Shown here one piece after another: positions 18,327 to 62,029 of a stretch of 64,000 nucleotides of DNA; position 1 is the stretch's first letter, and each line of letters begins with the position of its first letter. Made by a program: the position numbers and the translations under genes. This DNA comes from Snodgrassella alvi (GTDB lineage: Bacteria; Pseudomonadota; Gammaproteobacteria; Burkholderiales; Neisseriaceae): positions 25,562 to 89,561 of the forward strand of contig MEIR01000089.1 in assembly GCA_002777825.1 (NCBI GenBank), given 5' to 3'. Under the pieces are notes generated by a model. It saw only the letters and a program-made list of their open reading frames with translations. It did no database searches and was not told the DNA's origin.

Positions 18327-20726
<2,400 letters not shown>

Positions 20727-42565: not shown

Positions 42566-42790
42566 ATGTCAAATAATTCTTTAAGACTTACAAAGGTATT
42601 AAAATACTTTAGTGTATCTGATAGTGCATGGGTCAAAACCATCTCAAATCATAAGCTTGATAAAACATATTTTCTCAAACTTAGCCCATTACCTGTATCC
42701 AGCCATGCATGGCTGGCAAATCAATATTACCGGCTGCATTCTCATCTGATATCACCGAATAAACTGTCAATAAATGCGGAGGGCAGATAA
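42566..42790 (+). CDS. Hypothetical small protein
   Basis: 74-aa ORF, stop overlaps next ORF start (ATGA); weak. Confidence 0.2.
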   Translation: MSNNSLRLTKVLKYFSVSDSAWVKTISNHKLDKTYFLKLSPLPVSSHAWLANQYYRLHSHLISPNKLSINAEGR

Positions 42791-43552: not shown

Positions 43553-43571
43553 GAAAATAATTATTATTATC
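43553..43571. promoter_or_regulatory. Candidate Fur box upstream of the NRPS adenylation gene
   Basis: GAAAATAATTATTATTATC matches 15/19 of GATAATGATAATCATTATC. Confidence 0.4.
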
Positions 43572-43656
43572 TTTTAAAAATAATTAAGCCTGTATAGAAT
43601 GTTGTCTCTGGTGGATGGCAATCGGTTTCAGTCTATATTTTTGGGAGAAAGCTTAC

Positions 43657-45522
43657 ATGCACTCTGATACTTCTAAGTTACAGCAACAGCAGGATTTTCA
43701 ATCTGGTGTGAATGATGTGTCTGCACGAAGTTCAACCAGTGAAGTGACGGCAGCAGATGCTTTTCGTTTTCTGGAATATATCCAGCACAATCTATTTGAC
43801 GCTGTGCCGGATAAAACGGCGTTGTTTTATGCTGGTGAGGCCATTAGTTATCCACAGGTGGGGCAGAATGTGGCCAGAATCATGCACGCTTTGCGGCAAA
43901 AAGATTTACAGGCTGGCGCAGTGGTGGCGGTATGTCTGCCCAAAAGTGCTGAACATGTTTATGCTGTTTTAGCCTGTGCGCTGCTGGGTATTATCTGGTT
44001 ACCGGTTGATATGGATGCACCTGAGGCCAGACGCGACTATCTGCTGTCTAACAGTAGGGTTGATGTGGTTATCGCTAAGGCACAGCCAGACGGCTGGCAA
44101 TGTGTTTTGATTGATGATGTTCTGGCTATGCCAGTACCCGAAAAGCCTGAGTGTTCTTATGCACTGAATAAGCGTGCGGCCTATTATTTGTATACTTCTG
44201 GCAGTACGGGGATTCCAAAGTGTGTGGTACTGAATAATCTGGCTACAGCCAATGTACTCGGGCAAACGATTGGCCGATGGAATATGCATCGTGACGATGT
44301 GCTGATAGCAGTAACGCCCTTTCATCATGATATGTCTGTATTCGATGTTTTTGCAGCAATGGCACTTGGTGCTTCTCTGGTGATTCCAACGCCGGCACAG
44401 GTGAAGGATGCCTGTGCATGGGCGCAGTTGGTGGCGACGCATAATGTTACGATCTGGGTGAGTGTGCCGGCGATTGTGGATATGTTGTGCAGTGTGGCTC
44501 GGGTGGAACAATTGCAATCGCTGCGACTGGTTGCGCAGGGCGGCGATTATGTTAAGCCGGCGTTGATTCAATATTTACGCCAGCATCTGCCGCATGCGCG
44601 TTTGTTTTCTCTGGGCGGCCCTACGGAAACCACTATCTGGAGTATCTGGCATGAAATTACTGCTGAGGATGTGGATGTGATTCCTTATGGCCGGGCTTTG
44701 GCGCACAATCAATATTATATTCTGAATGAGCAGTTGCAGCCGTGTGCGGTGGGTGAAGTTGGCCAGATGTATATGGCGGGAGTGAATTTATCCAATGGCT
44801 ATTTGCTTGATGGGCAGTTACTCACCGGCGATTTTGTGTCGCTGCAATGCGATGCGGGAAAAACTGCTTTGCGCATGAATGATCTGGGCTATATGCGCGC
44901 GGATGGCAATATTATTTTTGCAGGGCGTGCTGAAGGCTATCTGAAAATCAAGGGGGTGCGGATTTCGGCAGCAGAAGTAGAAGTTGTGCTGGCTAAATCT
45001 GGCTGTTTACAGGATGGTGTGGTGGTGTGCTGTACTCATCCGGTAACGTCTATGCATGAATTGGTGGCGGTGTATACGCTGCCTGCGGGCAGGCAGAATG
45101 TGGATATTAATGCGTTAAAGCAACATTTATTAGCCAGCCTGCCTAAGTCGCACGTTCCCACCAGATGGCTGGCTATTGACCAGATTCCGCTTACGCGTAA
45201 TGTGAAAGTAGACCGGAAACGTATACAGCAGATGGCGCAGGAGCGTCTGTATCAGGCTGCGGCCGCAGCGGAGCAAAATCAGGCAGTGGCAGATAGTGTT
45301 GTGGCTATTTTTCGTGACTGCTGCCCGCAACAGGCAGACGATACAGGTGATGTTTCTGTGCAATCTGAAATTCTGGCCATGGGTTTGCGCCTGAAACAGT
45401 TAATGATGGTGGCCGGCAGGATTACTGAACGGTTTAATATTCAACTGGATGCGCCGGCTCTGGTGCGTTGTAAAACGGTACAGGATGTGGTGTATCAGGT
45501 GCAGCAGAAGATGCTGAATTAG
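43657..45522 (+). CDS. NRPS adenylation-domain protein with degenerate (Ser-less) C-terminal carrier-like region (AngR/BasD-like, lacking Cy domain)
   Basis: A-domain cores (YTSGSTGIPK, NGYLLDG-type A8, GRxD...K); C-terminal 80 aa resemble PCP fold but lack GGxS serine; SD GGGAGA before MHSD. Confidence 0.8.
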   Translation: MHSDTSKLQQQQDFQSGVNDVSARSSTSEVTAADAFRFLEYIQHNLFDAVPDKTALFYAGEAISYPQVGQNVARIMHALRQKDLQAGAVVAVCLPKSAEHVYAVLACALLGIIWLPVDMDAPEARRDYLLSNSRVDVVIAKAQPDGWQCVLIDDVLAMPVPEKPECSYALNKRAAYYLYTSGSTGIPKCVVLNNLATANVLGQTIGRWNMHRDDVLIAVTPFHHDMSVFDVFAAMALGASLVIPTPAQVKDACAWAQLVATHNVTIWVSVPAIVDMLCSVARVEQLQSLRLVAQGGDYVKPALIQYLRQHLPHARLFSLGGPTETTIWSIWHEITAEDVDVIPYGRALAHNQYYILNEQLQPCAVGEVGQMYMAGVNLSNGYLLDGQLLTGDFVSLQCDAGKTALRMNDLGYMRADGNIIFAGRAEGYLKIKGVRISAAEVEVVLAKSGCLQDGVVVCCTHPVTSMHELVAVYTLPAGRQNVDINALKQHLLASLPKSHVPTRWLAIDQIPLTRNVKVDRKRIQQMAQERLYQAAAAAEQNQAVADSVVAIFRDCCPQQADDTGDVSVQSEILAMGLRLKQLMMVAGRITERFNIQLDAPALVRCKTVQDVVYQVQQKMLN

Positions 45523-45596: not shown

Positions 45597-47714
45597 TTAC
45601 TGGCTGCCGCTCTGTGCTGAAGTCTGTGCGGCCAGTTTGCTCAAGAGTTGCTTCACCTCCCGGGCAATGCGTTCGACTACTGCGGTTGGATAGCGGTGTG
45701 CCTGATAGGTAATTATCATGCTCAGGCTATGCTGGTTGTTAATCTGGTTTTCCATGATTTCAAAGTGCAGGCCGAACATGGATTCGTTACGTTCAGGCAG
45801 TATTTGCCGGTATGGGATGGCACCTTGCGGAGTGTTTAGCTGGCCATTTAAGGCGTTGTTTGTGTGGATATGAATGTAAACATCAAACATTAAGCCCTGA
45901 TTATCGGGGATGCCTAAAGCCTGCTGGATATGATTAATCGGGATATCGGCATACTCTATGGACTCGTTGATTTGTTTGCTGGTGTCGGCCAGTAATGAGG
46001 TGAATGGTTGCTGCGGATTAAAGCGGATACGGTGCGCTACCATGGTGGTAAAGTAGCCAACGGTATCGAAATAGTTGGGGTCGGTACGGCCTGAAGCAGA
46101 GGTACCGATTACGATTTCGGTTAAATTACCCTCTTTTTGCAGTACGGTGGCAATGGCGGTATAAAACACGCTGAATATAGAGGCATGGTGTTTTTTGGTA
46201 AAGGCTGAGATGTTGCGATGGAAGGCTGAATCGAATTTGATTTCCAGCCATTCAATCTGTGGAGCGGTATTTTGCGATGCTGTCGCGACTGTCGAATTTA
46301 AAGTCAGTCCTTTTACAGCTCCTTGCAGATGCTTGCACCAGTAATCGAGATGTTGCTGGTTAATGCCGTTTTGCTGCTGCATGCGGGCAAATTCGTGAAT
46401 GCTGGGAACGCTGTTCGGCCAGACGGGTGCTTTGCCTTGCAGCCGTGCTGCATAGGCTATATTTAAATCGGCCATGATGGTGTTTAAAGACCACTCGTCT
46501 ATTACCATGTGATGCACCAGAAACGATAAAATCGTGTTGCCATTGTGTGCTTTTAACAGGCGGATTCGGAGTGGCAGTTCGCGTGTGAGATCGAATTTAT
46601 AGGCTGCTTCAGTAGCTAAGGTGGCATCTTTGCTGTCGCTGCTCGGCAAGAACCATTGATGCTGTTTAAGCTCGGTAATGGGTACGGTATATTGCAAGGT
46701 TTGTTGGTGTGAGGTTTTAAACAGGGTGCGTAATCCAACGTGGCGGATAATTAAATCATTAAATGCCTGATGTAAGGCTTCTTCATTAACCGGCTGCTGA
46801 AATTCTATAGCGAACGGTAGGTTATAAACGGGGCTGAAATCAAAAGCGCTGTAAGCCTGCCATAAAAAATCCTGCGCCAGTGTTAAGGGTGCCTGTTGTT
46901 CAGGCTGTATCTGGGTTGCGGAAGCAACTGGCTGCTCTTGCTGCGCAATATTGGCCAGTGCACGGGCGGATGGTGATTTAAAGAAATCATTGAAGTTCAG
47001 TTTAATGCCATGGTTGTTCTGTAAGTTGCCAATAGCTCGGGTGGCCAGCAGTGAATGGCCGCCAAAATCAAAAAAGTCATCGTCAAGGGTCATATTCGGT
47101 TCAGCCAGTGTGCTTCTGAACTCTGTCAGTATGATGCTGGCCAGTGCTGCTACGTTGGTATGCTGTGTTTTCTTGGCTGGTGCCGGATTTAAACTGCTTA
47201 AGTCTACTGGTGTGAGCTCGAGCTGATGTTCTGAACCGCTGTAGTTGTTGTAGCTGGTGCGGATTTCTTTGATTAATCCATTCAGTGTGAATTGTTCCTC
47301 AAGTATGGGATGCAAGCGAAGTGCCAGAATTACGCTGTTTTCTGTGCTGATTACTGTTGCCAGAAAAGGCGGGGTGATTTCGGGCTGCCAGTGTTGCTGT
47401 GCCAATGTAGATAATAGTGCAGTAACCTGCCCTTGCGCTGCTTGCTCATTCTGTACGCAGGTTGTCCAATCTGTATCGGGGTATTTGTATAAATCGCCGT
47501 CTTCGGTGAATTCATAGCGGGTATTCAATTCTGTATGCGTTGCCAGCAGGCTGTGGATACTTTTATGCAGGATGGCTGAATTGGGATATGGATTCAGCAG
47601 CCATGCTGCAAGCTGATATTTCACTTGTTCTGGTTCTTGTAACTGTTGCATCCAGATATATTCTTCACGCTCATTGGCTAAAGATGGTGCTGTTGCTGTA
47701 TTTGTATCTGACAT
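45597..47714 (-). CDS. NRPS PCP-condensation didomain protein (AngM-like)
   Basis: thiolation motif FFDFGGHSLLATRAI; condensation motif HHMVIDEWS. Confidence 0.8.
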   Translation of the reverse strand: MSDTNTATAPSLANEREEYIWMQQLQEPEQVKYQLAAWLLNPYPNSAILHKSIHSLLATHTELNTRYEFTEDGDLYKYPDTDWTTCVQNEQAAQGQVTALLSTLAQQHWQPEITPPFLATVISTENSVILALRLHPILEEQFTLNGLIKEIRTSYNNYSGSEHQLELTPVDLSSLNPAPAKKTQHTNVAALASIILTEFRSTLAEPNMTLDDDFFDFGGHSLLATRAIGNLQNNHGIKLNFNDFFKSPSARALANIAQQEQPVASATQIQPEQQAPLTLAQDFLWQAYSAFDFSPVYNLPFAIEFQQPVNEEALHQAFNDLIIRHVGLRTLFKTSHQQTLQYTVPITELKQHQWFLPSSDSKDATLATEAAYKFDLTRELPLRIRLLKAHNGNTILSFLVHHMVIDEWSLNTIMADLNIAYAARLQGKAPVWPNSVPSIHEFARMQQQNGINQQHLDYWCKHLQGAVKGLTLNSTVATASQNTAPQIEWLEIKFDSAFHRNISAFTKKHHASIFSVFYTAIATVLQKEGNLTEIVIGTSASGRTDPNYFDTVGYFTTMVAHRIRFNPQQPFTSLLADTSKQINESIEYADIPINHIQQALGIPDNQGLMFDVYIHIHTNNALNGQLNTPQGAIPYRQILPERNESMFGLHFEIMENQINNQHSLSMIITYQAHRYPTAVVERIAREVKQLLSKLAAQTSAQSGSQ

Positions 47715-48152: not shown

Positions 48153-49094
48153 ATGTATCTAGGTATGATAGGTGCATTTTTTGTTTTATGCATACTCTCT
48201 TTGCTGGTAGGCTCTGATCCGATTTCATGGACAGGTTTACTGGTCGGTTCAGATGCTGACTGGCTAACTTTGAAAGCCAGCCGTTTCCCGCGCCTGCTGG
48301 CGATTATTCTTACTGGTATGGGGCTTTCTATTGGCGGGGTAATTCTACAACATATTGTCCGCAATAAGTTTGTTGAGCCGGAAACGGCCGGCGGGCTAGA
48401 TGCAGCTAAGCTGGGGATTCTGATGTCACTGGTACTGCTGCCTTCGGTTGGGGTATTAAGTAAGATGCTGGTGGCTCTGGCGTTCTGTTTTGTGGCTGAG
48501 CTGATTTATATCCTGATTATTGCCAGAATCCGCTATCAGCAAATTGTGCTGATTCCGGTAATTGGGCTGATGTATGGCGGTGTGTTAAGTGCCGGCGCTG
48601 AATTTTATGCTTATAAAAATAATCTTTTGCAAAATGTTCAGGGCTGGCTGCTGGGTGATTTTTCGCGTGTGGTACAGGGGCATTATGAGTTGCTGTATGT
48701 TCTGATACCGGTGATTGTGCTGAGTTATGTGTTTGCACAGCGGTTTACGGTGGCAGGTATGGGGCAGGAAGTGGCTACCAGTCTGGGTGTGGGCTATAAA
48801 AGCACGGTGGTGCTGGGGCTAATGCTTGTGTCTGTTACTGTTGCGGCAACGGTGATTACGGTGGGCTCCATTCCTTTTATCGGGCTGGTGATTCCGAATC
48901 TGGTGGCACTTAAGTATGGTGAACATTTAGCCAAAACTTTACCGATGGTGGCTCTGGGCGGGGCATGTCTGCTGCTCGTATGTGATATTAGCGGCCGTTT
49001 AATCATTTATCCTTTTGAAGTCCCTATTGGTCTTACTGCCGGTGCTGTTGGCGGTATTGTCTTTCTGCTGCTGATTTTGCGGGGGCTTCGCTAA
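48153..49094 (+). CDS. Iron-siderophore ABC transporter permease (FecCD family)
   Basis: 313 aa, ~9 TM, FecCD motifs; operon with second permease, ATPase, binding protein. Confidence 0.85.
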   Translation: MYLGMIGAFFVLCILSLLVGSDPISWTGLLVGSDADWLTLKASRFPRLLAIILTGMGLSIGGVILQHIVRNKFVEPETAGGLDAAKLGILMSLVLLPSVGVLSKMLVALAFCFVAELIYILIIARIRYQQIVLIPVIGLMYGGVLSAGAEFYAYKNNLLQNVQGWLLGDFSRVVQGHYELLYVLIPVIVLSYVFAQRFTVAGMGQEVATSLGVGYKSTVVLGLMLVSVTVAATVITVGSIPFIGLVIPNLVALKYGEHLAKTLPMVALGGACLLLVCDISGRLIIYPFEVPIGLTAGAVGGIVFLLLILRGLR

Positions 49095-50038
49095 TGAATC
49101 GCAGATTCTGGCTGTTTTGTGGCTGCATCATTGCTCTGGCTGTGTTTTTTATGCTGTTTGATTCTGGCTTTGATGTTGATTATGTGCTGCCCAAACGTCT
49201 GTTACGGCTGGCTACTATTTTGCTGGCCGGTATCTGTATTGCGGTGTCGTCGGTGGTGTTTCAAACGTTGGTAACTAACCGGATTTTAACGCCGGCAATT
49301 ATGGGCTACGAGGCGGTTTATCTGTTCTGGCAGGTACTGCTGTTGTTCTTTCTGGGGCAAAGTGGTCTGGGATTACTGGGGCTTAATGGCAATTTCTTTG
49401 CCTCGGTAGGCTTAATGCTGCTGTATTCGTGGATGATTCATCATTTTTTACTGCCGCGAGCACGCCATAATCTGTGGCTGTTGTTGTTATTTGGTCTGGT
49501 ACTGACCATGGTAATCACTACTTTAACCCAGTTTATCCAGCTCAAAATCAGTCCGGGGGAGTTTTCGGTATTTCAAGGCATTAATTATGCTTCTTTTAAT
49601 CATTCAGAAACGCTGACGCTGGTATATGCTGCTATAGCGATGCTGGTGGTGGGCTGGGTGGCCTACCCGTATCTGCCTATGCTGGATGTGATGGCTCTAG
49701 GTGAAGAACAGGCCATTTCGCTGGGCGTGGATTATGCCCGCTATGTGCGCTGGGGGTTTGGTCTGATTGCGGTGCTGGTGGCGGTATCCACCAGTCTGGT
49801 TGGACCCACGGCATTTATGGGGGTATTTATTGCCAATATGGCTTACGCCTTTGCCGGCCACTTTCAACATAAACGCATTCTGTTATTTGCCAGTGCTGTG
49901 GCTGTTGTGGTGTTTCTGGTGGCGCAGATTCTGGTGGAACATGTGTTTAATTACAGGACTACGGTAAGTATTTTAATCAATCTGATTTGTGGGATGTATT
50001 TTCTGCTGCTTATTGTCTGTCGTCGAGGAATGGCATGA
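49094..50038 (+). CDS. Iron-siderophore ABC transporter permease (FecCD family, second subunit)
   Basis: 314 aa; start overlaps upstream stop (TAATG). Confidence 0.85.
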   Translation: MNRRFWLFCGCIIALAVFFMLFDSGFDVDYVLPKRLLRLATILLAGICIAVSSVVFQTLVTNRILTPAIMGYEAVYLFWQVLLLFFLGQSGLGLLGLNGNFFASVGLMLLYSWMIHHFLLPRARHNLWLLLLFGLVLTMVITTLTQFIQLKISPGEFSVFQGINYASFNHSETLTLVYAAIAMLVVGWVAYPYLPMLDVMALGEEQAISLGVDYARYVRWGFGLIAVLVAVSTSLVGPTAFMGVFIANMAYAFAGHFQHKRILLFASAVAVVVFLVAQILVEHVFNYRTTVSILINLICGMYFLLLIVCRRGMA

Positions 50039-50811
50039 TTCATATTCAGAATATTTGCAAAATTTATGGTCATAAGCCGGTACTGAATAATATTAATCTG
50101 GCGCTGCCGCTGCATCAGGTGACGGCGCTGATTGGCCCCAATGGCGCGGGTAAATCTACTTTGCTGATGATACTGGCACGGTTACTGGCACCCACTACAG
50201 GCAGTATTCTGTTTGAGCAGCAGGATATTGCCAGTATCCGCATTGCTGATTATGCCCGTCTGGTGGCCACGCTGCGGCAATCGCCCTATTTCGGCCTGCG
50301 TCTGACTGTAAAGGAGCTGGTGTCTTTCGGCCGCTTTCCATATGGACATGGATTGTTGTCTGCTAAAGATCATCAGGTAATAGACGAGGCAATAGATTTT
50401 TTAGATTTAAGTGCGCTGCGTGATGCATATATTGATGAATTAAGTGGCGGGCTGCGGCAAATGGCTTTTCTGGCCATGACTATTGCTCAGGAAACACGGG
50501 TTCTTCTGCTGGACGAACCTTTAAACAATCTGGATATGAATCATGCGGTACAAATTATGGCTGCTATCCGGCGTTTGTGTGAGGAACAGCGGAAAACTGT
50601 GATTATGGTGGTGCATGATATTAATTTCACGGCCAATTATGCAGATTATATTGTGGCTTTAAAACACGGACAGTTAAGTTTTTGTGGCGCTACGCGGGAA
50701 GTGATTACTGAAGAGTGTCTGAGTGAGCTGTATGGGCTGAATTTTGAAATCAGCCACACTAAGCATGGTTATGTCTGTCAGTATTTTCATTCGTTGAAAG
50801 GTAAAGCATGA
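50035..50811 (+). CDS. Iron-siderophore ABC transporter ATP-binding protein (FecE/FatE-like)
   Basis: Walker A GPNGAGKST, signature LSGGLRQ, Walker B LLLDEP; ATGA overlap with permease stop. Confidence 0.9.
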   Translation: MIHIQNICKIYGHKPVLNNINLALPLHQVTALIGPNGAGKSTLLMILARLLAPTTGSILFEQQDIASIRIADYARLVATLRQSPYFGLRLTVKELVSFGRFPYGHGLLSAKDHQVIDEAIDFLDLSALRDAYIDELSGGLRQMAFLAMTIAQETRVLLLDEPLNNLDMNHAVQIMAAIRRLCEEQRKTVIMVVHDINFTANYADYIVALKHGQLSFCGATREVITEECLSELYGLNFEISHTKHGYVCQYFHSLKGKA

Positions 50812-51794
50812 ACGGAAAACTCAAAAAATGTGCTGTCAGTCTGTTGGGGCTGATGGCGGTGATGACTATGGTTTCTGTGTCTGGCTGCGATAAAAAATCG
50901 GCACCAGCCAGCAGTCCTACTGTGCAAAAGCGCGCGGAACCACTGATTATTCAACATCAGTTGGGTACTACCAGAATTGATGCGGTGCCACAACGCGTGG
51001 CGGTGCTGGATATGAATGAAGCAGATTTTCTTGATCAGTTAAATGTGTCGATTGCCGGTATGCCGAAAGATTTTATTCCGCATTTTCTGGCTAAATACCA
51101 GCAGAGTCATGATGACATTGCTGATTTAGGTGGCATTGTCCAGCCGAATATGGAACGTGTCCATACTCTGAAGCCGGATCTGATTTTGATGACGCCGATT
51201 CAGAAAGACCATTATCAGGAACTGACGCAGATAGCGCCCACGCTTTATTATGAAATCAATTTTAATAACAGTGAGCACGGTCATCTGGCTACTGTTAAAA
51301 ATCACCTGCTGACGCTGGGCAAAATTTTTAACCGTGAAGATTTGGCTCGTACTAAGGTGGCTGAGCTGGATGCACAAGTGAATAAGGTGCGTGCCATCAC
51401 TAAAGACCGGCCGGAAAAGGCATTGGTGGTGCTGTACAACAATGGTGCTTTCAGCAATTACGGGGTAGATTCTCGTTATGGCTTTGTTTTCAGTGATCTG
51501 GGGGTAAGGTCTGCCAGTAATGATGCAAGTACCAGTTTGCATGGGCAGCCGATTTCCAGTGAATTTATCAAACGGGCAGACCCAGACATTCTGTACATTA
51601 TCGACCGCACATCGGTTATGCAACATCAGCCTATCATTACTGCTGCTCAGGTAACTAATCCTTTATTGCGCGCCACCAAAGCATGGAAAAATAACCGGGT
51701 GATTTTTGTGGATGCAGATGCTTGGTACACCACCGGTGCCAGCCCTACTTCGATGTACTTGCTCATGCAGGACGTGATGAAGGGCTATCAGTAA
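50808..51794 (+). CDS. Periplasmic siderophore-binding lipoprotein (FatB/FecB-like, class III SBP)
   Basis: lipobox VSGC; Peripla_BP_2 fold hallmarks. Confidence 0.8.
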   Translation: MNGKLKKCAVSLLGLMAVMTMVSVSGCDKKSAPASSPTVQKRAEPLIIQHQLGTTRIDAVPQRVAVLDMNEADFLDQLNVSIAGMPKDFIPHFLAKYQQSHDDIADLGGIVQPNMERVHTLKPDLILMTPIQKDHYQELTQIAPTLYYEINFNNSEHGHLATVKNHLLTLGKIFNREDLARTKVAELDAQVNKVRAITKDRPEKALVVLYNNGAFSNYGVDSRYGFVFSDLGVRSASNDASTSLHGQPISSEFIKRADPDILYIIDRTSVMQHQPIITAAQVTNPLLRATKAWKNNRVIFVDADAWYTTGASPTSMYLLMQDVMKGYQ

Positions 51795-51898: not shown

Positions 51899-54163
51899 AT
51901 GGGTAAACACGAACATTATCTGAGGCAGGATGGTCTACACAGGATTAGAAAACGGGGCGACAGTGTCGTAAGTTCTGTCAGCTCCTCCCCCAAAGCGCTG
52001 ATATTGAGTCTGGCCAGTGCTATGCTGGTTTATGCACCGGTACAGTATGCTAAAGCAGCGGATGATGAGGCTAAGCCAGAGATTAACAAAGCAGCAGATA
52101 AAACTATGCAATCTGCTGGCAAGGCCAATTTACCAGATGTGGTGGTAGAGGCAAATCAAAGCACTACCTACACCGGTGGTTTTGTGTCCAGAAACAGCCG
52201 TATCGGTTTTCTTGGTAACAAAAATGCCATGGAAACACCTTTTAATACCGTTAGTTATACTGATAAATTTGTTGAAGATACTCAGGCCAGAAATGTGACT
52301 GATGTGATTGCCGCTACTGACCCGTCAGTATTTACTAATGGCGCTATTGGTGGCTGGAGTGAGAATTACTATATTCGAGGTTTTCAGTCTAATACCAATG
52401 ATATGTCGATGAATGGTTTATTTGGTATTGCTCCTTACTACAGGACTGCACCTGCGATGTTTTCGCGCATTGAGGTGCTGAAAGGACCTTCAGCACTGCT
52501 GAATGGTATGCCGCCTGCCGGTTCTGTGGCAGGCACGGTTAATTTGGTATCCAAGCGCGCAGGTGATGCACCACTGCTACGGGTAACACCTACCTATATG
52601 TCTGATTCACAATGGGGCGGTACTATCGATGCCGGCCGCCGCTTCGGGCAAAATAAGCAATTCGGGATTCGGGTTAATGGCGTTTATCAGGATGGTTCCG
52701 GCCCGGTAAGAAAGCAGGATCTGAAAACTCAGCTTGGTTCGGCAGGCATGGACTGGCGCGGCTACCGGACGCGTATTTCCGCCGATTTTTACATGGCTGA
52801 TGACAAGGTAGACGGTGTAGTGCGCGGTATCAATCTGGGTAAAAATATGGAAGTTCCTGCGCCGCCCAACCCGAAAACCTTAATCAATCCAGACTGGTCT
52901 TATGTCAGTAATAAAGACCGTGGCGCGATGATGCGTGCTGAATATGATATTAGCGACAACATTACTGCCTATGCTGCTTTCGGACGCAGTAAAACCAAGT
53001 ACAAATACAATGGTGCCACTTCTGCAAATTTGCTGGATAATCACGGCACCATACAGACGGTGATGGCACAACTGGCGTTTGATGTGGATAAAAAATCGGC
53101 TGATGTGGGATTAAGGGGGCAGTTTGATACCGGTTTGGTTAATCATCAATGGGTAATCAATACTACCTACTACAAGCATAACCAGCATGATTATGGGGTG
53201 AGAAGTATTCCCTCGGCCACATGGATAACCAATATGTATCATCCGGTATGGGGTAAATCGGTACCGTTTGATGTGCCGCCGATTTCTAGAAGCTCGCTGC
53301 AACTTAAAAGCTATGGGATAGCGGATATGCTGTCATTGATGCAGGACAGGCTGCAACTAACTTTAGGCCTGCGCTATCAGGAAGTGAAAAGTGATAATCT
53401 GAGCCTGATGGGCAAACCGGTTCTAACTGAATATAAAAAACATGCCCTAACGCCGGGGGCGGCCATTTTGTTTAAAGCCACCGAACATGTATCACTTTAT
53501 GGCAATTATATTCAGGGCTTAACCAAAGGCGATTCAGCTCCTATTACTGCGGCCAATTATCCCAAGGTGTTTGCGCCGTATAAAACCAAGCAAACTGAGC
53601 TGGGCATCAAATGGGATTATGGCACGCTGTCTCACTCATTAAGTGTGTTTAATATTAAAAAACCCAGTAGTTATACTGATGTGACTACCAATATCTTTAC
53701 TTCCGGCGGTGAGCAGCGTAACCGTGGTATTGAGTGGAGTTTTATTGCCTCGCCGATTGAAACAGTACGCCTGATGGGCGGTGCCAGCTACATTAAACCG
53801 GAACTAACCAAACTGGCCAAGCATGGTAATGAGGGTAATATTGCTACGGGTGTGACCAAAGTACAGGGCAAACTGGGTGCTGAATGGGATATTGCTGCTG
53901 CTGTGGGGATGGTCACCCTGTCTGCCAATGCCACAGCCGTATCCAAGCAATACCTCAATCAGGAAAACAGTTTATCTGTACCCGGCCATACTGTATTTGA
54001 TATTGGTGCTCGTTATAATGCCAAAGTATCTGGCCATCCCTTTACACTACGGGCAGAGATTAAGAATGTTACCAATAAAAGCTATTGGGGCATGCCACGC
54101 TTGTCTAACCTGTCTTTAGGCGCACCACGGACTTTTCTGCTGTCCGGTTCCTATGATTTCTGA
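51899..54163 (+). CDS. TonB-dependent siderophore outer-membrane receptor
   Basis: signal peptide, plug-domain motifs, C-terminal beta-barrel ending in aromatic residue (..SYDF*); SD AAGGAGA 6 nt upstream of ATG at 51899 (ORF-track 51878 is a TTG). Confidence 0.85.
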   Translation: MGKHEHYLRQDGLHRIRKRGDSVVSSVSSSPKALILSLASAMLVYAPVQYAKAADDEAKPEINKAADKTMQSAGKANLPDVVVEANQSTTYTGGFVSRNSRIGFLGNKNAMETPFNTVSYTDKFVEDTQARNVTDVIAATDPSVFTNGAIGGWSENYYIRGFQSNTNDMSMNGLFGIAPYYRTAPAMFSRIEVLKGPSALLNGMPPAGSVAGTVNLVSKRAGDAPLLRVTPTYMSDSQWGGTIDAGRRFGQNKQFGIRVNGVYQDGSGPVRKQDLKTQLGSAGMDWRGYRTRISADFYMADDKVDGVVRGINLGKNMEVPAPPNPKTLINPDWSYVSNKDRGAMMRAEYDISDNITAYAAFGRSKTKYKYNGATSANLLDNHGTIQTVMAQLAFDVDKKSADVGLRGQFDTGLVNHQWVINTTYYKHNQHDYGVRSIPSATWITNMYHPVWGKSVPFDVPPISRSSLQLKSYGIADMLSLMQDRLQLTLGLRYQEVKSDNLSLMGKPVLTEYKKHALTPGAAILFKATEHVSLYGNYIQGLTKGDSAPITAANYPKVFAPYKTKQTELGIKWDYGTLSHSLSVFNIKKPSSYTDVTTNIFTSGGEQRNRGIEWSFIASPIETVRLMGGASYIKPELTKLAKHGNEGNIATGVTKVQGKLGAEWDIAAAVGMVTLSANATAVSKQYLNQENSLSVPGHTVFDIGARYNAKVSGHPFTLRAEIKNVTNKSYWGMPRLSNLSLGAPRTFLLSGSYDF

Positions 54164-54215: not shown

Positions 54216-55532
54216 TTACTCGGGTAATCCATACTGCTGAAATGCAGAGTATTCCGGTACCTGATAATACTGCTTACCTAGTAACTGGTTGATAATCACC
54301 CCGTTTCTGGTTGCGCCCATGCCTAAATCCGGCGAACCAACGCCCTGTTTGGCAATTTCGGCATTCTGGATAAAAATCCGCCCTTGGCCACCATCACAGC
54401 GCACAGCAGTAAAATCCTGATTAATCATATAATCATGCTGATCATCGGTTTGCAGTACAGTGCCTTTCAGCTCTTCAAACCAGCTCGGCCACTGATGGTG
54501 GTAGCCGGTAGCAGCAACAATCGCATTGCTCTGAATAGTTTGTTGTTGATTAAGCTGAGTATGCAGGCAGGTCATATTGATAACGCCTGAAGGCAGCACT
54601 TCTATCGACTGCACATCACAATTTGAAAACAGCGTCAGTCCGGCCGGTGCTCCGGCGATGGTGCGTTCGTACAGCAAATCATAAATATCGCCGATGGTAG
54701 CAAAACTGATGCCTTTGTATAGTTGCCCTTGGCTGGCACTGATTTCTCGTCTTTTCTGTGGTGGCAAAGTCTGGAAATAACGCATATAAACCGGCGTAAA
54801 ACACTCCTGTCCCAATTTGGAAAATTCCATCGGATGAAAACCTGCAGAACGGGTAATCCAGCGAATAGAGGCGCCGGCTCTGATTTGCTCCGGCTGCAAG
54901 GCTTGGTAAAGTGCCAGCACACATTCAGCAGCACTCTGCCCTGCACCAACCACAGTAACCTGCCTGCATTGCTGTAGCTGTTCCTGCATATGGGTAAACT
55001 GAGCAGAGTGCAGAATGAGCGGATGGCTGGTATTTTTCAGCCATTCAGGATAGTAGGGGACGGTGCCAATGCCAATCGCAATATCCTGACTGCAATAAGC
55101 CTGTTTTTTTCCGGCAGAAGATTCACTTTCAATAATAAATTTTTCCTGCTGGCGGTCATAGCTTACTGCCTGCACACAAGAATCAAAATGGCAGGAGGGT
55201 AACTGACGCACAGCCCAGCGACAGTAGTCATCATATTCCTGACGCGGTATCAGGAAACGGTCGTAGTAGCAAAACTGGTACAGACGCTGATGCTGATGCA
55301 GGTAATTCAGATAGCTTAAGGGATGGCATGGATTGGCCATAGTAACCAGATCGGCCAGAAACGGTACTTGCAGAGTGGTGCCGGGTAATAGTAAACCCGC
55401 GTGCCAGTGAAAAGTGGGCGTTTTATCCAAAAACACTGCATTAACTTCCGGATGGCTCGACAACAATGCCGCCAGCCCCAGATTGAAAGGGCCAAGCCCT
55501 ATACCGGCCAAATCAGTTTGTTTCATATCCAT
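54216..55532 (-). CDS. Flavin-dependent N-hydroxylating monooxygenase (IucD/PvdA/BasC/AngU family)
   Basis: N-terminal FAD motif GIGLGPFNLGLAALL, second nucleotide-binding motif VTVVGAGQSAAE; K_oxygenase family. Confidence 0.85.
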   Translation of the reverse strand: MDMKQTDLAGIGLGPFNLGLAALLSSHPEVNAVFLDKTPTFHWHAGLLLPGTTLQVPFLADLVTMANPCHPLSYLNYLHQHQRLYQFCYYDRFLIPRQEYDDYCRWAVRQLPSCHFDSCVQAVSYDRQQEKFIIESESSAGKKQAYCSQDIAIGIGTVPYYPEWLKNTSHPLILHSAQFTHMQEQLQQCRQVTVVGAGQSAAECVLALYQALQPEQIRAGASIRWITRSAGFHPMEFSKLGQECFTPVYMRYFQTLPPQKRREISASQGQLYKGISFATIGDIYDLLYERTIAGAPAGLTLFSNCDVQSIEVLPSGVINMTCLHTQLNQQQTIQSNAIVAATGYHHQWPSWFEELKGTVLQTDDQHDYMINQDFTAVRCDGGQGRIFIQNAEIAKQGVGSPDLGMGATRNGVIINQLLGKQYYQVPEYSAFQQYGLPE

Positions 55533-55593: not shown

Positions 55594-58461
55594 TTATGCC
55601 GTAGACATCATTGATTGAATCAGGTGTTCAACTTCCTCAATATTGCGACAGCCAATCAACTGCCTTGGCTTCATAGCCAGCCCGAAAATCTGGTTAATCT
55701 GGCTGGTAACTTCTTTTACGTGTACAGGACGCAAACCCAGATTACTCAATGATTGCGAGGTTTGGATAATTGTTGCTGGCTTAATATTCAGCACTTTGCA
55801 GTAAATCAGCATTAATTGCTGGCGCTGCCAGTCTGCTGCTGCCACGGGCTGCTCATCAGGATTTGGTGCAGTGCCGGATGGTGTCTGTAGCAGCACTGAA
55901 TCAATATTTTCCAGTCCGCTATCAGCCACCTGCTGGCACACATTCACCAGTGCAGCTAAAAAATCGTGGATGATGGCATCGCTAACAGCAGCCTGAGCAT
56001 AGTCAACGTTAAACAGCAAAGCACCATCATTCCCAAGCATAAAGCGGATATCCATTGCTACCTGTGGTGTCTGAGTCAGCCCGCTCACATAGCGAACCGG
56101 GCTATCTGCCGGCAGAGTTGGCCACGATAGCCCATTGGTAACAACAACTGGTAAAACCGGCGCATGGCCATGCTGTTCAAACAGCAAGCGCGCCAAATCA
56201 ACACCAGAAAAGGCCAAATGCTGTAATCCTTCCAGCGTATCGGTTTGTAATTTTCTGGCCTGTTCGATAAATGCTGCCGTTGGCGCCCAAGTAGTGACAA
56301 TAAAAGTAGACTGATTGGACAATTCACCCTCATACAGCGGTAACACTGGCACCGCCACAGACAATAAGGCTGGTGTCTGCTGCCAGCGATTCAATACCGC
56401 CAGAATCAGCGCCATTAGTAAAGAATTTTTGAACAATCCCTGACGACAACCGAACTGACATAATGTTTGCAACGTTTGCTTGGGCAACATCGCACTTTGA
56501 CGGGTATAAACGGAGGTCATCAGTGTTGCCAACGGCTGTTTCCAAGGTAACTGCGGTATGGAAGTAACTTCTTGCAACCGCTGTTTCCAGTAAATAACCG
56601 CCAAGTTATAACGCTGGCTATCCTGCTGCTGTCTGTTTTCAGGCTGAGGTGACGCGGTCATAAGGGGCGTATCGGTGAATAATTCATACATCAGCGCGGC
56701 AATCGCACGCCCATCCAAAATCAGCGCATCAAAACGAGCAAACACAATAAACTGTTGCGGCGTTAACTGAAAAAGGGTGATGTCCCACGGAGATTCCTGT
56801 AAATCAAATAGCGCCTGCTGATAATTCTGCCGCAGAGTATTTATTTTTTCTGCGGCCACTGACGGTTCCTCACCACACAAATTAATTTCGGTTAAATTAA
56901 TGATTGCCTGCGGGTTTACCCATTGCACACAACGTCTGGCATCAATATAAGTCCTCAAACTGGCATGGTGCTGCACCATATCGGCCAGACGCTGCCGGAA
57001 TACAGGTAAATCCAGCGTGCCGGCATATTCGCGAAATTCCTGCATAGCCACACCACCAAGAGCAAATGCAGTGCTGCGCCCAGATAAATAGGCCTTTTGC
57101 AGCGCATTCAGCGGTGTAGTTACCACATCAGGGTCGGTGATATTCAGGTACTGATTCAATACCGCCAGCGGCTGCGTAAAACGCTCCGGCTGAACAATCA
57201 ACGCATTCATCAGCGCAAGACAACGTTCAAACAGAGCATTTACCCATGTATCCGGCAATGCATCCAGACGGATATCCCAATTAACGAGCAAATGATTGTC
57301 CAGCTGCACAAACTGTGCATCCAGTGCTACCTGCGACCCCTGAGAAATACACCAGTCCATGCTGCCAAAATACTGATGCACCTGTGACGAAAATAAACTT
57401 TTCTCTGCTAAATCCAGCGCAGCAGTAAAAACAACCGGCGCAATTTGCGCCATAGCATGATGGCGTGACAAACACCGCATCACATTTACGCCACTAAACT
57501 GCCGATGGTTCAGACAGCGCTGCCATTCGGCTGCCACGCGCTGGCAAAAAGCATTTAGAGTAGCCGCATCAGACATATCAATATTTAACAGCACCATATC
57601 GGCAAAATCACCAATGGTTTTATCAATATCGGGTACAACTGGTTCGCGCCAGAAAAACGGCACGTTCAGCCGGTAAGCGGCATCATGGGTTACTTTACCC
57701 AGACTGTAGGCAAATAACCCCAGTATCAGAGCAGAAAAAGTCAACTCATGCTGATGGGCAAGTTGGCGTAACTGCTTTGCCTGCTCAGGACTGAAAGTCG
57801 TACTCAGCCGTGTGCTTTGTGCCCCCGCCACAGCACAGTTGGTTAAAGGCAAAGCAGGAGCAGGAGCAATCGCTGCTATACGGGACTGCCACCACTGGCG
57901 TGCACGTTGCTGCTGTTGCTGCTCATGCTTATCCTGCCGTAGGGTGTTGCGCCATACATAAAAAGACGGTGCCGGCGGTAGAGACTTAGTGCTGTCTGCA
58001 TAAAACTGCGCCAAATCTTCCATCAAAATACGAAAGCTGGAAGGATCAACAGCAATCATATCGGCATCAATATGCAACCGAAATGCCTGATTATCCAGAA
58101 GACTGATAGAAACACGTATAGTCTGCCCCTCCTCCAACTTCAGTTGTTGATGCGTCCATTGCTGGCGTTTTTCTTCGAGCTTCTGTTGCTGCTGCGCCTC
58201 ACTCAAATGTAAAAAATCATCTATTTCCAGCGTATTCTGTGGCAGAGAATCCCTGATACTGACTTCCCCCGCAGCACTAAGTTGCAGGCGTAACAGCTCA
58301 TGGCGCCGGTACAGACATTCTATTGCCTGCCTGAGTCTGGCTACATCAATATGGCTACCATTAAATTCTGTATAAAGATGTGCGGCCACACCACCGAGCA
58401 TTGCTGCATGCGTACGCCCAAACCAGCATGCCGACTGCATTGAAGTAAGTTCACGCATCAT
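55594..58461 (-). CDS. NRPS tandem heterocyclization (Cy-Cy) protein (AngN/BasB-like)
   Basis: 955 aa; first Cy motif DADMIAVDPSS (DxxxxDxxS), second degenerate DALILDGRA. Confidence 0.7.
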   Translation of the reverse strand: MMRELTSMQSACWFGRTHAAMLGGVAAHLYTEFNGSHIDVARLRQAIECLYRRHELLRLQLSAAGEVSIRDSLPQNTLEIDDFLHLSEAQQQQKLEEKRQQWTHQQLKLEEGQTIRVSISLLDNQAFRLHIDADMIAVDPSSFRILMEDLAQFYADSTKSLPPAPSFYVWRNTLRQDKHEQQQQQRARQWWQSRIAAIAPAPALPLTNCAVAGAQSTRLSTTFSPEQAKQLRQLAHQHELTFSALILGLFAYSLGKVTHDAAYRLNVPFFWREPVVPDIDKTIGDFADMVLLNIDMSDAATLNAFCQRVAAEWQRCLNHRQFSGVNVMRCLSRHHAMAQIAPVVFTAALDLAEKSLFSSQVHQYFGSMDWCISQGSQVALDAQFVQLDNHLLVNWDIRLDALPDTWVNALFERCLALMNALIVQPERFTQPLAVLNQYLNITDPDVVTTPLNALQKAYLSGRSTAFALGGVAMQEFREYAGTLDLPVFRQRLADMVQHHASLRTYIDARRCVQWVNPQAIINLTEINLCGEEPSVAAEKINTLRQNYQQALFDLQESPWDITLFQLTPQQFIVFARFDALILDGRAIAALMYELFTDTPLMTASPQPENRQQQDSQRYNLAVIYWKQRLQEVTSIPQLPWKQPLATLMTSVYTRQSAMLPKQTLQTLCQFGCRQGLFKNSLLMALILAVLNRWQQTPALLSVAVPVLPLYEGELSNQSTFIVTTWAPTAAFIEQARKLQTDTLEGLQHLAFSGVDLARLLFEQHGHAPVLPVVVTNGLSWPTLPADSPVRYVSGLTQTPQVAMDIRFMLGNDGALLFNVDYAQAAVSDAIIHDFLAALVNVCQQVADSGLENIDSVLLQTPSGTAPNPDEQPVAAADWQRQQLMLIYCKVLNIKPATIIQTSQSLSNLGLRPVHVKEVTSQINQIFGLAMKPRQLIGCRNIEEVEHLIQSMMSTA

Positions 58462-58511: not shown

Positions 58512-58530
58512 TGAAAATGATTACCAGTTT
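58512..58530. promoter_or_regulatory. Candidate Fur box in divergent promoter between Cy-Cy gene and entE-like gene
   Basis: GAAAATGATTACCAGTTTC matches 14/19 of Fur consensus. Confidence 0.3.
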
Positions 58531-58636
58531 CATTTAATAAATTTGAAACAACAGTTAACCTACTAATGGGTTCCACTGAACAGACAGACACAAAAACGAT
58601 GTTGCAAACTAATTATTACTTATAAATCAACATTAT

Positions 58637-59947
58637 TTGTCTGATTCAACCGGTTTAGCAGAAAAGGCTGATGAAATGATTACCTATACACACTGGCCAG
58701 AAGATTTAGCCCGCAAATACCGGCAAAAAGGTTATTGGCTGGATCAGCCGTTAACCCGAGTCCTGACAGACACAGCCAAACAGTCACCACACTCAACCGC
58801 CATTATCTGCGGTGACCGGCGCATCAGTTATCAGGAACTCAACCAGTTTTCCGACAATCTGGCCGCCAGACTGGCGGAGCAGAACTTTGGCATTGGTGAT
58901 ACAGCACTGGTGCAACTACCGAATATTGCCGAGTTTTATATTGTATTTTTCGCCCTGCTCAAGGCTGGTATCGTGCCGCTGAACGCCCTGTACAACCATC
59001 GCCAACATGAATTAAAGAGCTTCTTCAGCCAGATTAAACCCCGGTTGCTAATAGCATCGCGCAACCATGAAGTATTCATGCACAATCATTTTCTCGACCA
59101 GCTGGACAGCCTGCAACTGGCACCAGCCCTCACCCTGATGCTGCATGCCACAGACGGTGATAGAAACTTAAAAAACTGGTACACCTGCCCTCCCGCCACC
59201 AGCAGCAATTATGCCTGCACTCAGGCTGATGAAGTGGCTTTTTTCCAGCTTTCCGGCGGTAGCACCGGCACACCTAAGCTGATTCCGCGCACCCATAATG
59301 ATTATGAATACAGCGTGCGTGCCAGTGCCGAAATATGCGGCCTGAACCAGAATACACGTTTATTGTGTGCCATGCCGGCGCCGCATAACTATATGCTGAG
59401 TTCGCCCGGTGCACTGGGCGTATTTCATGCCGGCGGCTGTGTGGTCATGGCGGCCAGCCCCGAACCATCAAGCTGCTTTGCTCTGATTGAACAACACCAG
59501 CTTACCATGGCCTCACTTGTACCCAGTGCAGTATCCATGTGGATGCAGCAGCCACCGGAACAGTTAGAAAAAACCCGGTCGTTACAACTGATTCAGGTAG
59601 GCGGTGCCAGTTTTCCAGAATCCATGGCGCGGCAGGTATTAAACGTTTTCGGCTGCCAGTTACAGCAAGTATTCGGCATGGCTGAAGGACTGGTGAACTA
59701 TACACGGCTAGATGACAGCGAAGAAGTGATTGTCACCACACAAGGACGTCCCATCAGCCCAGATGATGAAGTAAAAATAGTGGATGAAAACGGCAACGAT
59801 GTACCTGATGGAGAAACAGGCATGCTAAAAACACGCGGGCCTTACATCTGCACCCCACCCCCGCCGTATGCGGTCCCCCCACCGCAACAGCAAGACAGTT
59901 TATCCTTACCCATGAAGGTTACAACCGCCACTACTACAGCGGCCTGA
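58637..59947 (+). pseudogene. entE: 2,3-dihydroxybenzoate-AMP ligase (EntE/AngE/BasE-like), 3'-truncated and fused to an isochorismate synthase 3' fragment
   Basis: first ~400 aa collinear with E. coli EntE through ...TRGPY; then Pro-rich nonsense encoded by C-tracts (CACCCCACCCCCGCC...GTCCCCCCACC) and stop; last ~125 codons of EntE absent. Confidence 0.75.
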
Positions 59948-60132
59948 ATGGTTGGATGGACGCCAGCGGTAATGGCGAATGGGTAGTTACCATCCGCAAT
60001 GGCCTGCTAAATCACAACAAAATCCGCCTGTATGCCGGTGCCGGCATCGTTAAAGGCTCCGAGGCAGCAACAGAATGGCAAGAAACCGAAGCCAAAATGC
60101 AAACCATGCTCAACGTCTTTCAGCAGCAATAA
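59842..60132 (+). pseudogene. 3' fragment (~75 codons) of an isochorismate synthase gene (EntC/AngC-like), frame +1 relative to entE
   Basis: translation ...GYNRHYYSGLNGWMDASGNGEWVVTIRNGLL...IRLYAGAGIVKGSEAATEWQETEAKMQTMLNVFQQQ* matches chorismate-binding enzyme C-terminus (EntC ...YAGAGIVPASSPLGEWRETGVKLSTMLNVF); no N-terminal 300+ codons present. Confidence 0.75.
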
Positions 60133-60154: not shown

Positions 60155-60922
60155 ATGCAATCTGCCATCATCGTTACCGGCGCAGCACAAGGCATCGGCG
60201 CCGCCGTAGTCAGCAAGCTACTTCAACAAAACTACCATATTATCGGCATCGACAAACAGCCAGCCCCGGCAAACTGGCCAGTACAACAAATGATAGCGCC
60301 CCAATATCAGCACCACTGGCTTGGCGTTAGTCAGAACATAACCGACTTCGAAGAAACCCAAATCCTGCTCAACACCCTTATCGCCCAACACCACATCACC
60401 GGTTTAGTCAACGTTGCCGGCATACTCATACTTACCCCCCTGCTCAATGCCACAGAAACACAATGGCAAAGCAGCCTAAACATAAACCTACTAGCACCCA
60501 TCTTCATCAGCCAGCATTTAGCTCGACATTTCCATCAGCAACAACACGGCAGCATCGTTACCGTCAGCTCCAACAGCGCCCGTATGCCCCGCACCCAGCT
60601 AGGCCTGTATGCCACCACCAAAGCCGCCCTCAGCCACTTCTGCCGCAATCTGGCATTAGAAGTAGCCCCATACGTACGCGTCAACATCGTTTCCCCCGGC
60701 TCCACCCACACCGCCATGCAGCAACAACTGTGGCCAGACAACCAGCCACCAGCCAGCATAATCAATGGCGACCTAAACCAGTACCGCCTCGGCATTCCCC
60801 TCAGAAAACTGGCACAGCCCGCAGATATAGCCAATACCGTTTCCTTCCTGCTCTCCGAACAGGCTGCCCAGATAACCATGCAGGAAATCGTCGTCGATGG
60901 CGGCGCCACACTGGGGGTTTAA
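60155..60922 (+). CDS. entA: 2,3-dihydro-2,3-dihydroxybenzoate dehydrogenase (SDR)
   Basis: TGAAQGIGAAV NAD motif, catalytic YxxxK (YATTKAAL), SPGST.T.M and C-terminal IVVDGGATLG closely paralleling E. coli EntA. Confidence 0.85.
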   Translation: MQSAIIVTGAAQGIGAAVVSKLLQQNYHIIGIDKQPAPANWPVQQMIAPQYQHHWLGVSQNITDFEETQILLNTLIAQHHITGLVNVAGILILTPLLNATETQWQSSLNINLLAPIFISQHLARHFHQQQHGSIVTVSSNSARMPRTQLGLYATTKAALSHFCRNLALEVAPYVRVNIVSPGSTHTAMQQQLWPDNQPPASIINGDLNQYRLGIPLRKLAQPADIANTVSFLLSEQAAQITMQEIVVDGGATLGV

Positions 60923-62029
60923 TCACGAATCTGAGCGCAGTATCCATAGTCCGATGCTTTTACCATCCCATCACTGCCTAACAAACCAACTAAACCTTCC
61001 TTCTAACCATTATTTAAATCAACAAGCTAATCACAAAAATTCTACTGTGCAGGCTAACTTGAGCTTATCTCAAGCCAAAATAAATAACCGCCGAATACAG
61101 ATATTGTTTAAGAAAATTATTTAAGCCAAAAAAAAATTTATCAAATTAATATACTATTCATTTGGAATATTAAACTAATAAACAACTTTCCGATATACAT
61201 TAGTAACTATCCAAACACGACATTTTAGCTTCAACTAATTTTATAGAATATATTTTTCAAACCAAATAAACTATTCAAAAAATCCCAAAATCTAAACACC
61301 TTATCAGGAACAAAAAATTCATTAACTATGCATTTCTAGACAATAGCCATAAAAGCAACCAATAAATACCTATGTCATCCTATGTCTCATTAGTACCATT
61401 CTAATATTATTTTAACTTCAGCCTACATAGCTACAGGTATAAATAAAAAAATTAATCACGTACCTTTAACTTCAATTAGCATCATGATTTGATTAAAAAA
61501 TATAAATTCATGGTTAGTCAAACCGATAAGTAACCCAACAAACACAATGATTATACTTTTTTGCATTCGGCCATTTTTTACTCTGTAGAATATTTTTTCA
61601 TTAGTTAATTCCCTTCCCTCTATTAATATTTATATTAATTATTTTTAAGCTTACTTAAACATATTAAAAATATAAATATATTTTCATTCGTTAAAATTTT
61701 AATTTTAATATTAAGAATTAGTTTAAAAATATACATTTACATCAAAAGGTTACAACAAAATGTTAATTATTTCTCTAATATGAAAATATTAATAATTAAT
61801 AATTAATATTTTATAAGATTTTATTTTTCAAGCGTAATCTTTAAAAGTAACTGCGTTTAATGATGTGTAAATGGTTTGAAAATATATACAGATAGTTTTA
61901 ATCCTTATTAAGTATCTGTTTATGTATCTGCCAGTTTGCTCAAACAACCAGCAGATGTAATGAACACACACAGTTATTTGTAAAAGAGGTTGAGTTTGTT
62001 AGTTATGTAACTTTAATCAGGAGAAACCA

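Follow-up and report, generated by a model that had tools for sequence, protein, structure and literature searches.

The sequence analysed was a 64-kb window from a strain of the Snodgrassella alvi group (bee-gut Neisseriaceae), in which a siderophore locus carries a truncated basE (entE) gene, for a 2,3-dihydroxybenzoate (DHB)-AMP ligase, fused to the end of an entC gene. Reading frames and translation were inspected at 58.4-61.2 kb. By gene content and synteny, the locus is a siderophore cluster of the acinetobactin/anguibactin type. The nonribosomal peptide synthetase (NRPS) set BasA, BasB and BasD and the synteny with bauA-E were present, as expected of such a cluster. A basA-like gene for an NRPS adenylation protein (43615..45522, + strand) has an open frame with AMP-binding and AA-adenyl-dom matches, and aligned collinearly at 98% with the intact conspecific locus L099, with the same open frame upstream. 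The basB-like NRPS gene (PCP-C, 45597..47714, - strand) is intact and encodes 705 amino acids (aa), 97% identical to a 705-aa protein of an intact conspecific. An ATP-binding cassette (ABC) importer of the bauD/bauC/bauE/bauB type (48153..51794, + strand) was recognized by Pfam and NCBIfam matches to two FecCD permeases, an ATPase and a periplasmic binding protein. The adjoining bauA-like TonB-dependent siderophore receptor (51899..54163, + strand; 754 aa, intact) contains Plug and TonB_dep_Rec_b-barrel domains and matched TIGR01783 with 350 bits at a cut-off of 223.5. The basC-like histamine N-monooxygenase (54216..55532, - strand; 438 aa, intact) matched TIGR04439 over the full length with 759.3 bits, thus passing the equivalog cut-off of 700. 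The basD-like NRPS (55594..58461, - strand; 955 aa, intact) has two tandem Condensation domains and a PP-binding domain (PCP) in Pfam. The divergent basD/basE promoter region holds a Fur-box-like site (58513..58531, no strand assigned), a consensus match only, with 15/19 positions of GATAATGATAATCATTATC; it and a 16/19 site at 43553-43571 upstream of the basA-like gene score best in the whole window. Then follow the remnants of basE/entE (58676..59846, + strand) and entC/basJ (59839..60132, + strand) and the gene for 2,3-dihydro-2,3-dihydroxybenzoate dehydrogenase, entA (60155..60922, + strand; full length, 255 aa). A full-length, stand-alone BasE was missing from the window, as were BasF/AngB and BasJ/AngC; in 10 conspecific contigs BasE has 537/550 aa, and both other proteins were present in intact relatives.

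The fused open reading frame (ORF) spans 58637 (TTG) to 59947. Profiles aligned from the ATG at 58676, which is likely the real basE start. The predicted product of 423 aa consists of BasE residues 1-390, out of 537 codons, and 33 out-of-frame residues; motifs A7-A10 and the C-terminal subdomain are missing. It matched the EntE equivalog NF008192 over profile positions 1-389 of 534 with 609.7 bits, below the full-length cut-off of 783, and TIGR02275 over positions 2-388 of 526, again below the full-length cut-off. Pfam found AMP-binding and no AMP-binding_C. Protein searches with the BasE fragment yielded 99% identity to a cluster of 550-aa proteins (residues 1-403 of the 550-aa conspecific protein), 89% with S. 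gandavensis and 85% with S. alvi. In a genome contig scan, the listed matches included no Snodgrassella, and the best among them was A. calcoaceticus with 67%. The best match with a solved structure was A. baumannii BasE (PDB 3O82), residues 8-397 of 544. In BasE, residues 1-439 form the N-terminal subdomain and a mobile C-terminal subdomain follows, which adenylation enzymes require (PMC12005286). Since the homology ends at residue 397, the truncated enzyme lacks the last part of the core and the entire C-terminal subdomain. The last homologous residues are GMLKTRGPY, with TRGPY encoded at 59831-59845, followed by 33 proline-rich codons (ICTPPPPYAVPPPQQQ...). This out-of-frame tail over entC DNA (59847..59947, + strand) reads ICTPPPPYAVPPPQQQDSLSLPMKVTTATTTAA and then a stop, and the basE frame passes on its way through a C5 tract, CACCCCACCCCCGCC, and a C7 tract, GTCCCCCCACC.

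The next frame, 59839-60132, starts with LALHLHPTPAVCG and reads ALHLHPTPAVCGPPTATARQFILTHEGYNRHYYSGLNGWMDASGNGEWVVTIRNGLLNHNKIRLYAGAGIVKGSEAATEWQETEAKMQTMLNVFQQQ up to a stop. It comprises codons 292-388 of a 388-codon isochorismate synthase and lacks a start codon and the N-terminal 75%. Matches covered positions 298-389 of 391 in the EntC family NF011591, 174-257 of 257 in PF00425 (Chorismate_bind) and 258-348 of 349 in TIGR00543, and the remnant was 98.9% identical to residues 301-388 of conspecific EntC. As the basE and entC frames are offset, the fusion is out of frame. The initial annotation of this DNA, made from the letters alone, had described an EntE homologue collinear up to TRGPY and then running through the C-tracts into a proline-rich tail, and the profile and BasE matches agree with it. 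It had rightly called the 3' end of entE absent and the following frame a C-terminal EntC remnant, but the extents need correction: about 147 codons of basE are missing instead of about 125, and the entC remnant has 97 codons beginning upstream at 59839, not about 75 from about 59900. An intact entA downstream was seen correctly: the protein matched TIGR04316 over positions 2-250 of 250 (269.5 bits) and NF006074 (265.2 bits), under the curated cut-offs of 300 and 312, and was 99% identical to the conspecific protein P0121.

The fused ORF and EntA are identical to S. alvi PIT50903.1 and PIT50904.1 in GenBank. In a protein index that does not include the source assembly, exact look-ups of EntA, the fused ORF, BasB and BauD had no match. 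GenBank and RefSeq annotate the remnants as normal proteins, a 423-aa '2,3-dihydroxybenzoate-AMP ligase / AMP-binding protein' and a 94-aa 'chorismate-binding protein' (59848-60132); records are PIT50903.1, PIT54444.1/WP_100137731.1 and WP_218966864.1. The truncated protein P0248 differs from the fused ORF at tail residues 406 and 415. A functional neo-fusion protein was ruled out: its tail is read out of frame and varies from one carrier of the fusion to another, and the carrier-specific changes in the basE part are mostly nonsynonymous.

The intact comparison set comprised S. gandavensis, S. alvi and 10 conspecific contigs, whose left flank was 98.4-98.9% identical to the window. The intact operon has seven genes: basE (DHB-AMP ligase, 537/550 aa), basF (isochorismatase with a PP-binding aryl carrier domain, 291 aa), the ABC exporter genes barA-like (533 aa) and barB-like (527 aa), a gene for an Sfp/EntD-type 4'-phosphopantetheinyl transferase (PPTase, 262 aa), entC/basJ (isochorismate synthase, 388 aa) and entA (DHB dehydrogenase, 255 aa). 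BLAST of the window against the intact conspecific loci returned two collinear blocks that overlap by 9 bases at 59838-59846, separated in the relatives by 6,440 bp (6,443 in one) with clean breakpoints. An alignment with intact loci had been called for in the initial annotation, which proposed that a single deletion removed everything from the 3' part of entE to most of entC, including any genes in between; the one gap against all 10 contigs confirms this proposal. The deletion is wider than was assumed, as basF, the barA/barB-like exporter and the PPTase were identified among the lost genes. The absence of an isochorismatase/aryl carrier protein from the window also held, and tblastn with conspecific BasF, BarA, BarB, PPTase and EntC detected no other copy of any of them in the 64 kb. 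The loss had been placed at the C-tracts; the junction lies upstream of both.

The overlap at the junction (59838..59846, + strand) is the sole remaining copy of a 9-bp direct repeat, GGCCTTACA. In the intact loci the basE side reads ...ACGCG GGCCTTACA CCTTTCGC... and the entC side ...AATCT GGCCTTACA TCTGCACCCC..., while the window reads ...ACGCG GGCCTTACA TCTGCACCCC.... The repeat was present twice in each 20.8-kb intact locus (n=10), 6,440 bp apart, at basE codon 388 (in the 537-codon numbering) and entC codon 291, where it encodes G-P-Y and A-L-H, respectively. In L087, for example, the copies start at 3244 and 9684 and nowhere else in 20.8 kb; the window has one copy in 64 kb, at 59838. 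S. gandavensis has the right copy only and S. alvi of the L084 type neither. Two copies that bound the segment in the intact allele and a single copy at the junction identify the latter as the footprint of a microhomology (short direct repeat) deletion.

The same allele was found in other strains. The cluster of BasE at 90% identity contained three truncated members, of 423, 423 and 436 aa, and an identical junction with the same gene order was present in GCA_002777575.1 (L097) and JGI 3300076093 (L098). Over about 14.8 kb, the window is 99.19% identical to L097 (120 mismatches) and 98.78% to L098 (164 mismatches), and these two differ from each other by 1.3%. Within the carriers, the flanks diverge by 0.6-0.8%. 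The initial annotation had spoken of a recent erosion of the pathway, which holds only in part, the allele being common to three strains that differ to this extent.

The remaining genes were in good condition. Neither stops nor indels were observed in the three carriers in bauD (part), bauC, bauE, bauB, bauA, basC, basD and entA, and the lengths in relatives agree: 754 aa for BauA, equal lengths for the importer genes and 954-956 aa for BasD orthologues. The earlier view that receptor, importer and remaining NRPS genes look intact is borne out by these equal lengths and collinear frames. The ratio of nonsynonymous to synonymous polymorphism (pN/pS) among carriers was 0.17-0.33 for the uptake genes (0.18 for bauA), 0.14 for basC, 0.40 for basD and 0.04 for entA. 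Carrier-specific nonsynonymous and synonymous sites, compared with polymorphisms among intact strains, are small counts: 4:2 versus 10:16 in the basE remnant, 2:4 versus 0:3 in the entC remnant, 2:9 versus 0:7 in entA and 13:10 versus 16:15 in basD (partial). Each carrier has one private nonsynonymous change in the basE remnant, and the counts are compatible with a relaxed constraint on it.

The roles of basE/F/I/J, barA/B and bauA-E in the synthesis, export and uptake of acinetobactin have been described (PMC4394237). Applied to this locus, one event of illegitimate recombination or replication slippage between the two GGCCTTACA copies would have removed 6,440 bp, leaving one copy, joining basE out of frame to the entC stub and placing entA next after the probably iron-regulated basE promoter. 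With EntC/BasJ and the BasF isochorismatase lost, neither isochorismate nor DHB would be formed. The missing C-terminal subdomain of BasE and the missing aryl carrier of BasF would abolish DHB activation and loading, the remaining PCP domains would probably stay unprimed after the loss of the cluster PPTase, and dedicated export would have ended with BarAB. As DHB synthesis, loading, PPTase and exporter are all gone, the strain very likely lost siderophore production and would neither make nor secrete the compound. Receptor and importer were kept, and uptake of the siderophore from intact conspecifics would be possible; judged from their intactness and from carrier differences that are mostly synonymous, the strain probably still takes up conspecific siderophore. 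The fused remnant and entA are probably still iron-regulated, because the basD/basE intergenic region has the Fur-box-like match. Altogether we consider it highly probable that the locus, of acinetobactin/anguibactin type, suffered a heritable loss of 6.4 kb that ended production and secretion and spared uptake.

Three observations weigh against this reading. The window covers only 64 kb of the genome, and a diverged DHB pathway, an Sfp-type PPTase or an exporter may exist elsewhere. entA (2:9, pN/pS 0.04), basC and basD still look constrained among carriers, which is unexpected for a long-dead pathway. This constraint may reflect flank diversity imported by recombination, or the deletion may be younger than the flank divergence suggests; for entA, another role of the enzyme is possible. 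Finally, a degenerate pattern of the junction, which matches L098 exactly, had 0 matches in a metagenome contig collection, a result uninformative on the frequency of the allele as such samples were evidently absent.

How the deletion allele is maintained is a separate question. Biosynthesis was inactivated by truncation of basE and entC and by deletion of basF, PPTase and exporter, and receptor and importer were kept under purifying selection, although part of the diversity may be recombination-imported. A cheater state is plausible on this genetic pattern. Producers and non-producers might segregate as a polymorphism within one Snodgrassella species, the latter kept by exploiting co-resident producers under negative frequency dependence; this is possible, but on the doubtful side. 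If true, a lineage of natural cheaters would exist in an animal-gut symbiosis that is open to gnotobiotic work. The loss could also have been non-adaptive: the siderophore would be dispensable in the niche or in culture, the deletion would drift and the uptake genes would not yet have decayed, with no exploitation involved. We hold this to be a real possibility. Other iron systems perhaps suffice, since relatives possess an FTR1/P19-type transporter (Iron_transport, Cupredoxin_1, FTR1, Peptidase_M75) a few kb downstream, and a colonization study linked siderophore/iron-acquisition modules to a slightly lower bacterial load of honey bees (PMC13293248). Since the biosynthetic genes that remain are equally intact, the good state of the uptake genes does not by itself set them apart. 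Drift accords less well with the low pN/pS of the uptake genes among carriers diverged by 0.6-0.8%, with the persistence of the allele through strain diversification and with the intact conspecific producers, which are common in the same data sets and occur in the same sequencing projects as the carriers. This persistence, together with the apparently constrained entA, basC and basD, might mean that the partial pathway still has some function.

The three strains may not owe the junction to one ancestor. A deletion between the same repeats always yields the same junction, and the 9-bp repeat pair could be a deletion hotspot at which it arose repeatedly. In line with this, 6 of the 12 carrier-variable sites in the basE remnant were also polymorphic among intact strains, and L097 lacks the changes at 59875 and 59892 common to the window and L098. 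Against this stand the neighbour-joining trees of the 3.25-kb left and the 2.05-kb right flank, calculated for the 3 carriers and 10 intact sequences. The carriers grouped together in both trees, and all of them differed from all 10 intact sequences at 11 sites of the left and 35 sites of the right flank. The left flank also contained 11 polymorphisms common to carriers and intact strains, which indicate recombination or incomplete sorting. One origin of the deletion, followed by recombination, is the most parsimonious reading of these sites, and a recurrent origin appears unlikely.

Less likely still is a real deletion that is compensated, with the functions provided elsewhere by translocation or paralogues and the siderophore still made. 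The 64-kb coverage and the constraint on entA, basC and basD would suit this alternative. Split pathways do exist, as entA of A. baumannii is reported to lie outside its cluster (PMC3343012). The lost genes themselves speak against it: the window has no copy of them, and in the 20-kb regions examined, intact relatives carry them only at this locus. The 90% clusters of PPTase, EntC and BarA contained proteins from five intact GenBank assemblies and, with regard to copies of at least 90% identity, no protein of the two carrier assemblies apart from the 94-aa entC stub, a result that speaks against translocation. The BasF 90% cluster had one member only and was uninformative either way. A translocation of the missing segment was rejected on these grounds.

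A sequencing or assembly artefact, that is, a false frameshift or a collapsed region in a genome that really has full entE and entC genes, is very improbable. The source appears to be a draft assembly, with a contig of 91.5 kb, and the C5 and C7 runs come just after the loss of homology. However, the difference to the intact relatives is 6,440 bp and not 1-2 bases, and the 9-bp repeat is far shorter than assembler k-mers. The junction recurs in two further independent assemblies with hundreds of single-nucleotide differences; together with the clustering of carriers on both flanks, this marks an inherited allele. The tracts have a simple origin. CACCCCACCCCCGCC, the C5 tract, represents the native HPTPAV codons of entC and was identical in the 10 intact entC genes and the 3 carriers, save for one intact sequence with a C>G within it. 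The C7 tract GTCCCCCCACC stands where intact genes have GTACCCCCACC and goes back to a single A>C substitution at 59875 (Thr>Pro), which the window and L098 carry and L097 lacks. Tract lengths did not vary among the 13 conspecific sequences. In the alignment the C-tracts thus correspond to codons of the conserved HPTPAV motif that the basE frame reads out of phase. The initial annotation had wished homopolymer errors to be checked and had named phase-variation sites as an alternative; with a native C5, a C7 arisen by substitution and lengths constant in 13 sequences, both suggestions were refuted. Neisseriaceae use homopolymer phase variation, and C5 and C7 runs are present, but the prospect that the tracts are contingency sites switched on and off by slipped-strand mispairing is negligible, since they lie past the junction inside entC-derived DNA encoding the conserved HPTPAV(C)G(T/P)P segment, show no length polymorphism that would switch an otherwise complete gene, the gene being incomplete in every frame, and could by no change in length bring back the missing 6.4 kb.

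The closest known systems are the acinetobactin locus of Acinetobacter (basA-J, barAB, bauA-F) and the related anguibactin locus of Vibrio. Gene content and order agree with those of the A. calcoaceticus locus L001, with bauDCEB-bauA-basC-basD and divergent basE-basF-...-barA-barB-...-basI-basJ. Sequence similarity to the acinetobactin system amounts to 67% identity for BasE and 55-56% for BasB, the latter value with A. baumannii, and GenBank labels the Snodgrassella BasB 'acinetobactin biosynthesis protein'. In contrast to the acinetobactin locus, the window lacks basF, barA, barB and basI and retains stubs of basE and basJ. Another difference concerns the Snodgrassella cluster in general, intact or deleted: basG (histidine decarboxylase) and basH (thioesterase) are missing in the regions examined. 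For the decarboxylase (BasG/AngH), tblastn with A. calcoaceticus BasG was negative both for the window and for the intact Snodgrassella loci L084 and L087. A basG gene could sit elsewhere in the Snodgrassella genome, and another locus or the gut could provide histamine, despite the BasC-type monooxygenase in the cluster. By analogy with acinetobactin and anguibactin, the predicted product is a DHB-(oxazoline/thiazoline)-N-hydroxyhistamine siderophore. Unlike A. baumannii, in which entA lies elsewhere (PMC4394237), Snodgrassella has entA inside the operon. The deleted segment (L087 3253-9692) has a G+C content of 49.7% versus 43.5% in the window. This higher value and the closest listed relatives outside Snodgrassella in Acinetobacter, with 67% identity in BasE and the same synteny, suggest that the locus moved horizontally between Moraxellaceae and Snodgrassella.

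Bacterial deletions between short direct repeats proceed by RecA-independent slipped misalignment or illegitimate recombination. The present case, with a perfect repeat at both ends of the parental allele and one copy at the junction, contains nothing unusual; the repeat pair is peculiar to this Snodgrassella lineage. Natural siderophore non-producers that keep the cognate receptor, so-called cheaters, occur in marine Vibrio populations and among pyoverdine-negative Pseudomonas. The window shares with them the deleted biosynthesis, the retained TonB-dependent receptor and ABC importer, and related producers in the same type of habitat. It differs in the host, a core symbiont of the bee gut, in the exactly resolved event (9-bp microhomology, 6,440 bp), in the loss of exporter and PPTase along with the DHB genes, and in that exploitation of producers is here only a possibility. 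The deletion mechanism is ordinary, and other bacteria offer well-known examples of lost biosynthesis with a kept receptor; the case is therefore of limited conceptual novelty. In the literature searched, no description of a Snodgrassella siderophore product or of the deletion allele was found, and neither iron nor siderophores come up in PMC5727410, the genome paper for these strains. Bee-gut Snodgrassella serves as an experimental model of how strains coexist in the gut of an animal. The allele would remove siderophore synthesis, activation and export and leave uptake, and close intact strains are in culture collections; with this natural genotype, cheating on a public good and competition for iron could be tested directly in gnotobiotic bees with no engineering. 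As the remnants are annotated as ordinary proteins, surveys of pan-genomes or biosynthetic gene clusters would miscount carriers as producers.

On the left side, between ampD and the siderophore locus, window positions 41119-42759 did not align with the intact conspecific L099 and may be a strain-variable islet. A 289-aa ORF in this stretch (41525-42394) had no Pfam or NCBIfam match, and L099 has a matchless 303-aa ORF at this place. A small winged-helix (HTH_39) ORF lies just past the unaligned stretch, at 42790-43095. On the right side, 3' of entA, a gene for a YadA-like trimeric autotransporter adhesin (ESPR, YadA_head/stalk/anchor) occupies window positions 61880-64000 and runs off the window end. 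It holds internal tandem repeats of about 279 bp, and the many overlapping ORFs at 62.2-64 kb belong to it. In relatives the adhesin is located at 11880-17999 (L087), 11879-17440 (L088), 11879-16576 (L089) and 13382-19018 (L098), and its length varies among conspecifics (1565, 1853, 1878 and 2039 aa). A few kb beyond the adhesin, a P19/FTR1/cupredoxin/Peptidase_M75 iron-transport operon was located in L087 (19935-20768), L088 (19401-20768) and L089 (18513-20768), which could serve as an alternative iron route lessening the dependence on the siderophore.

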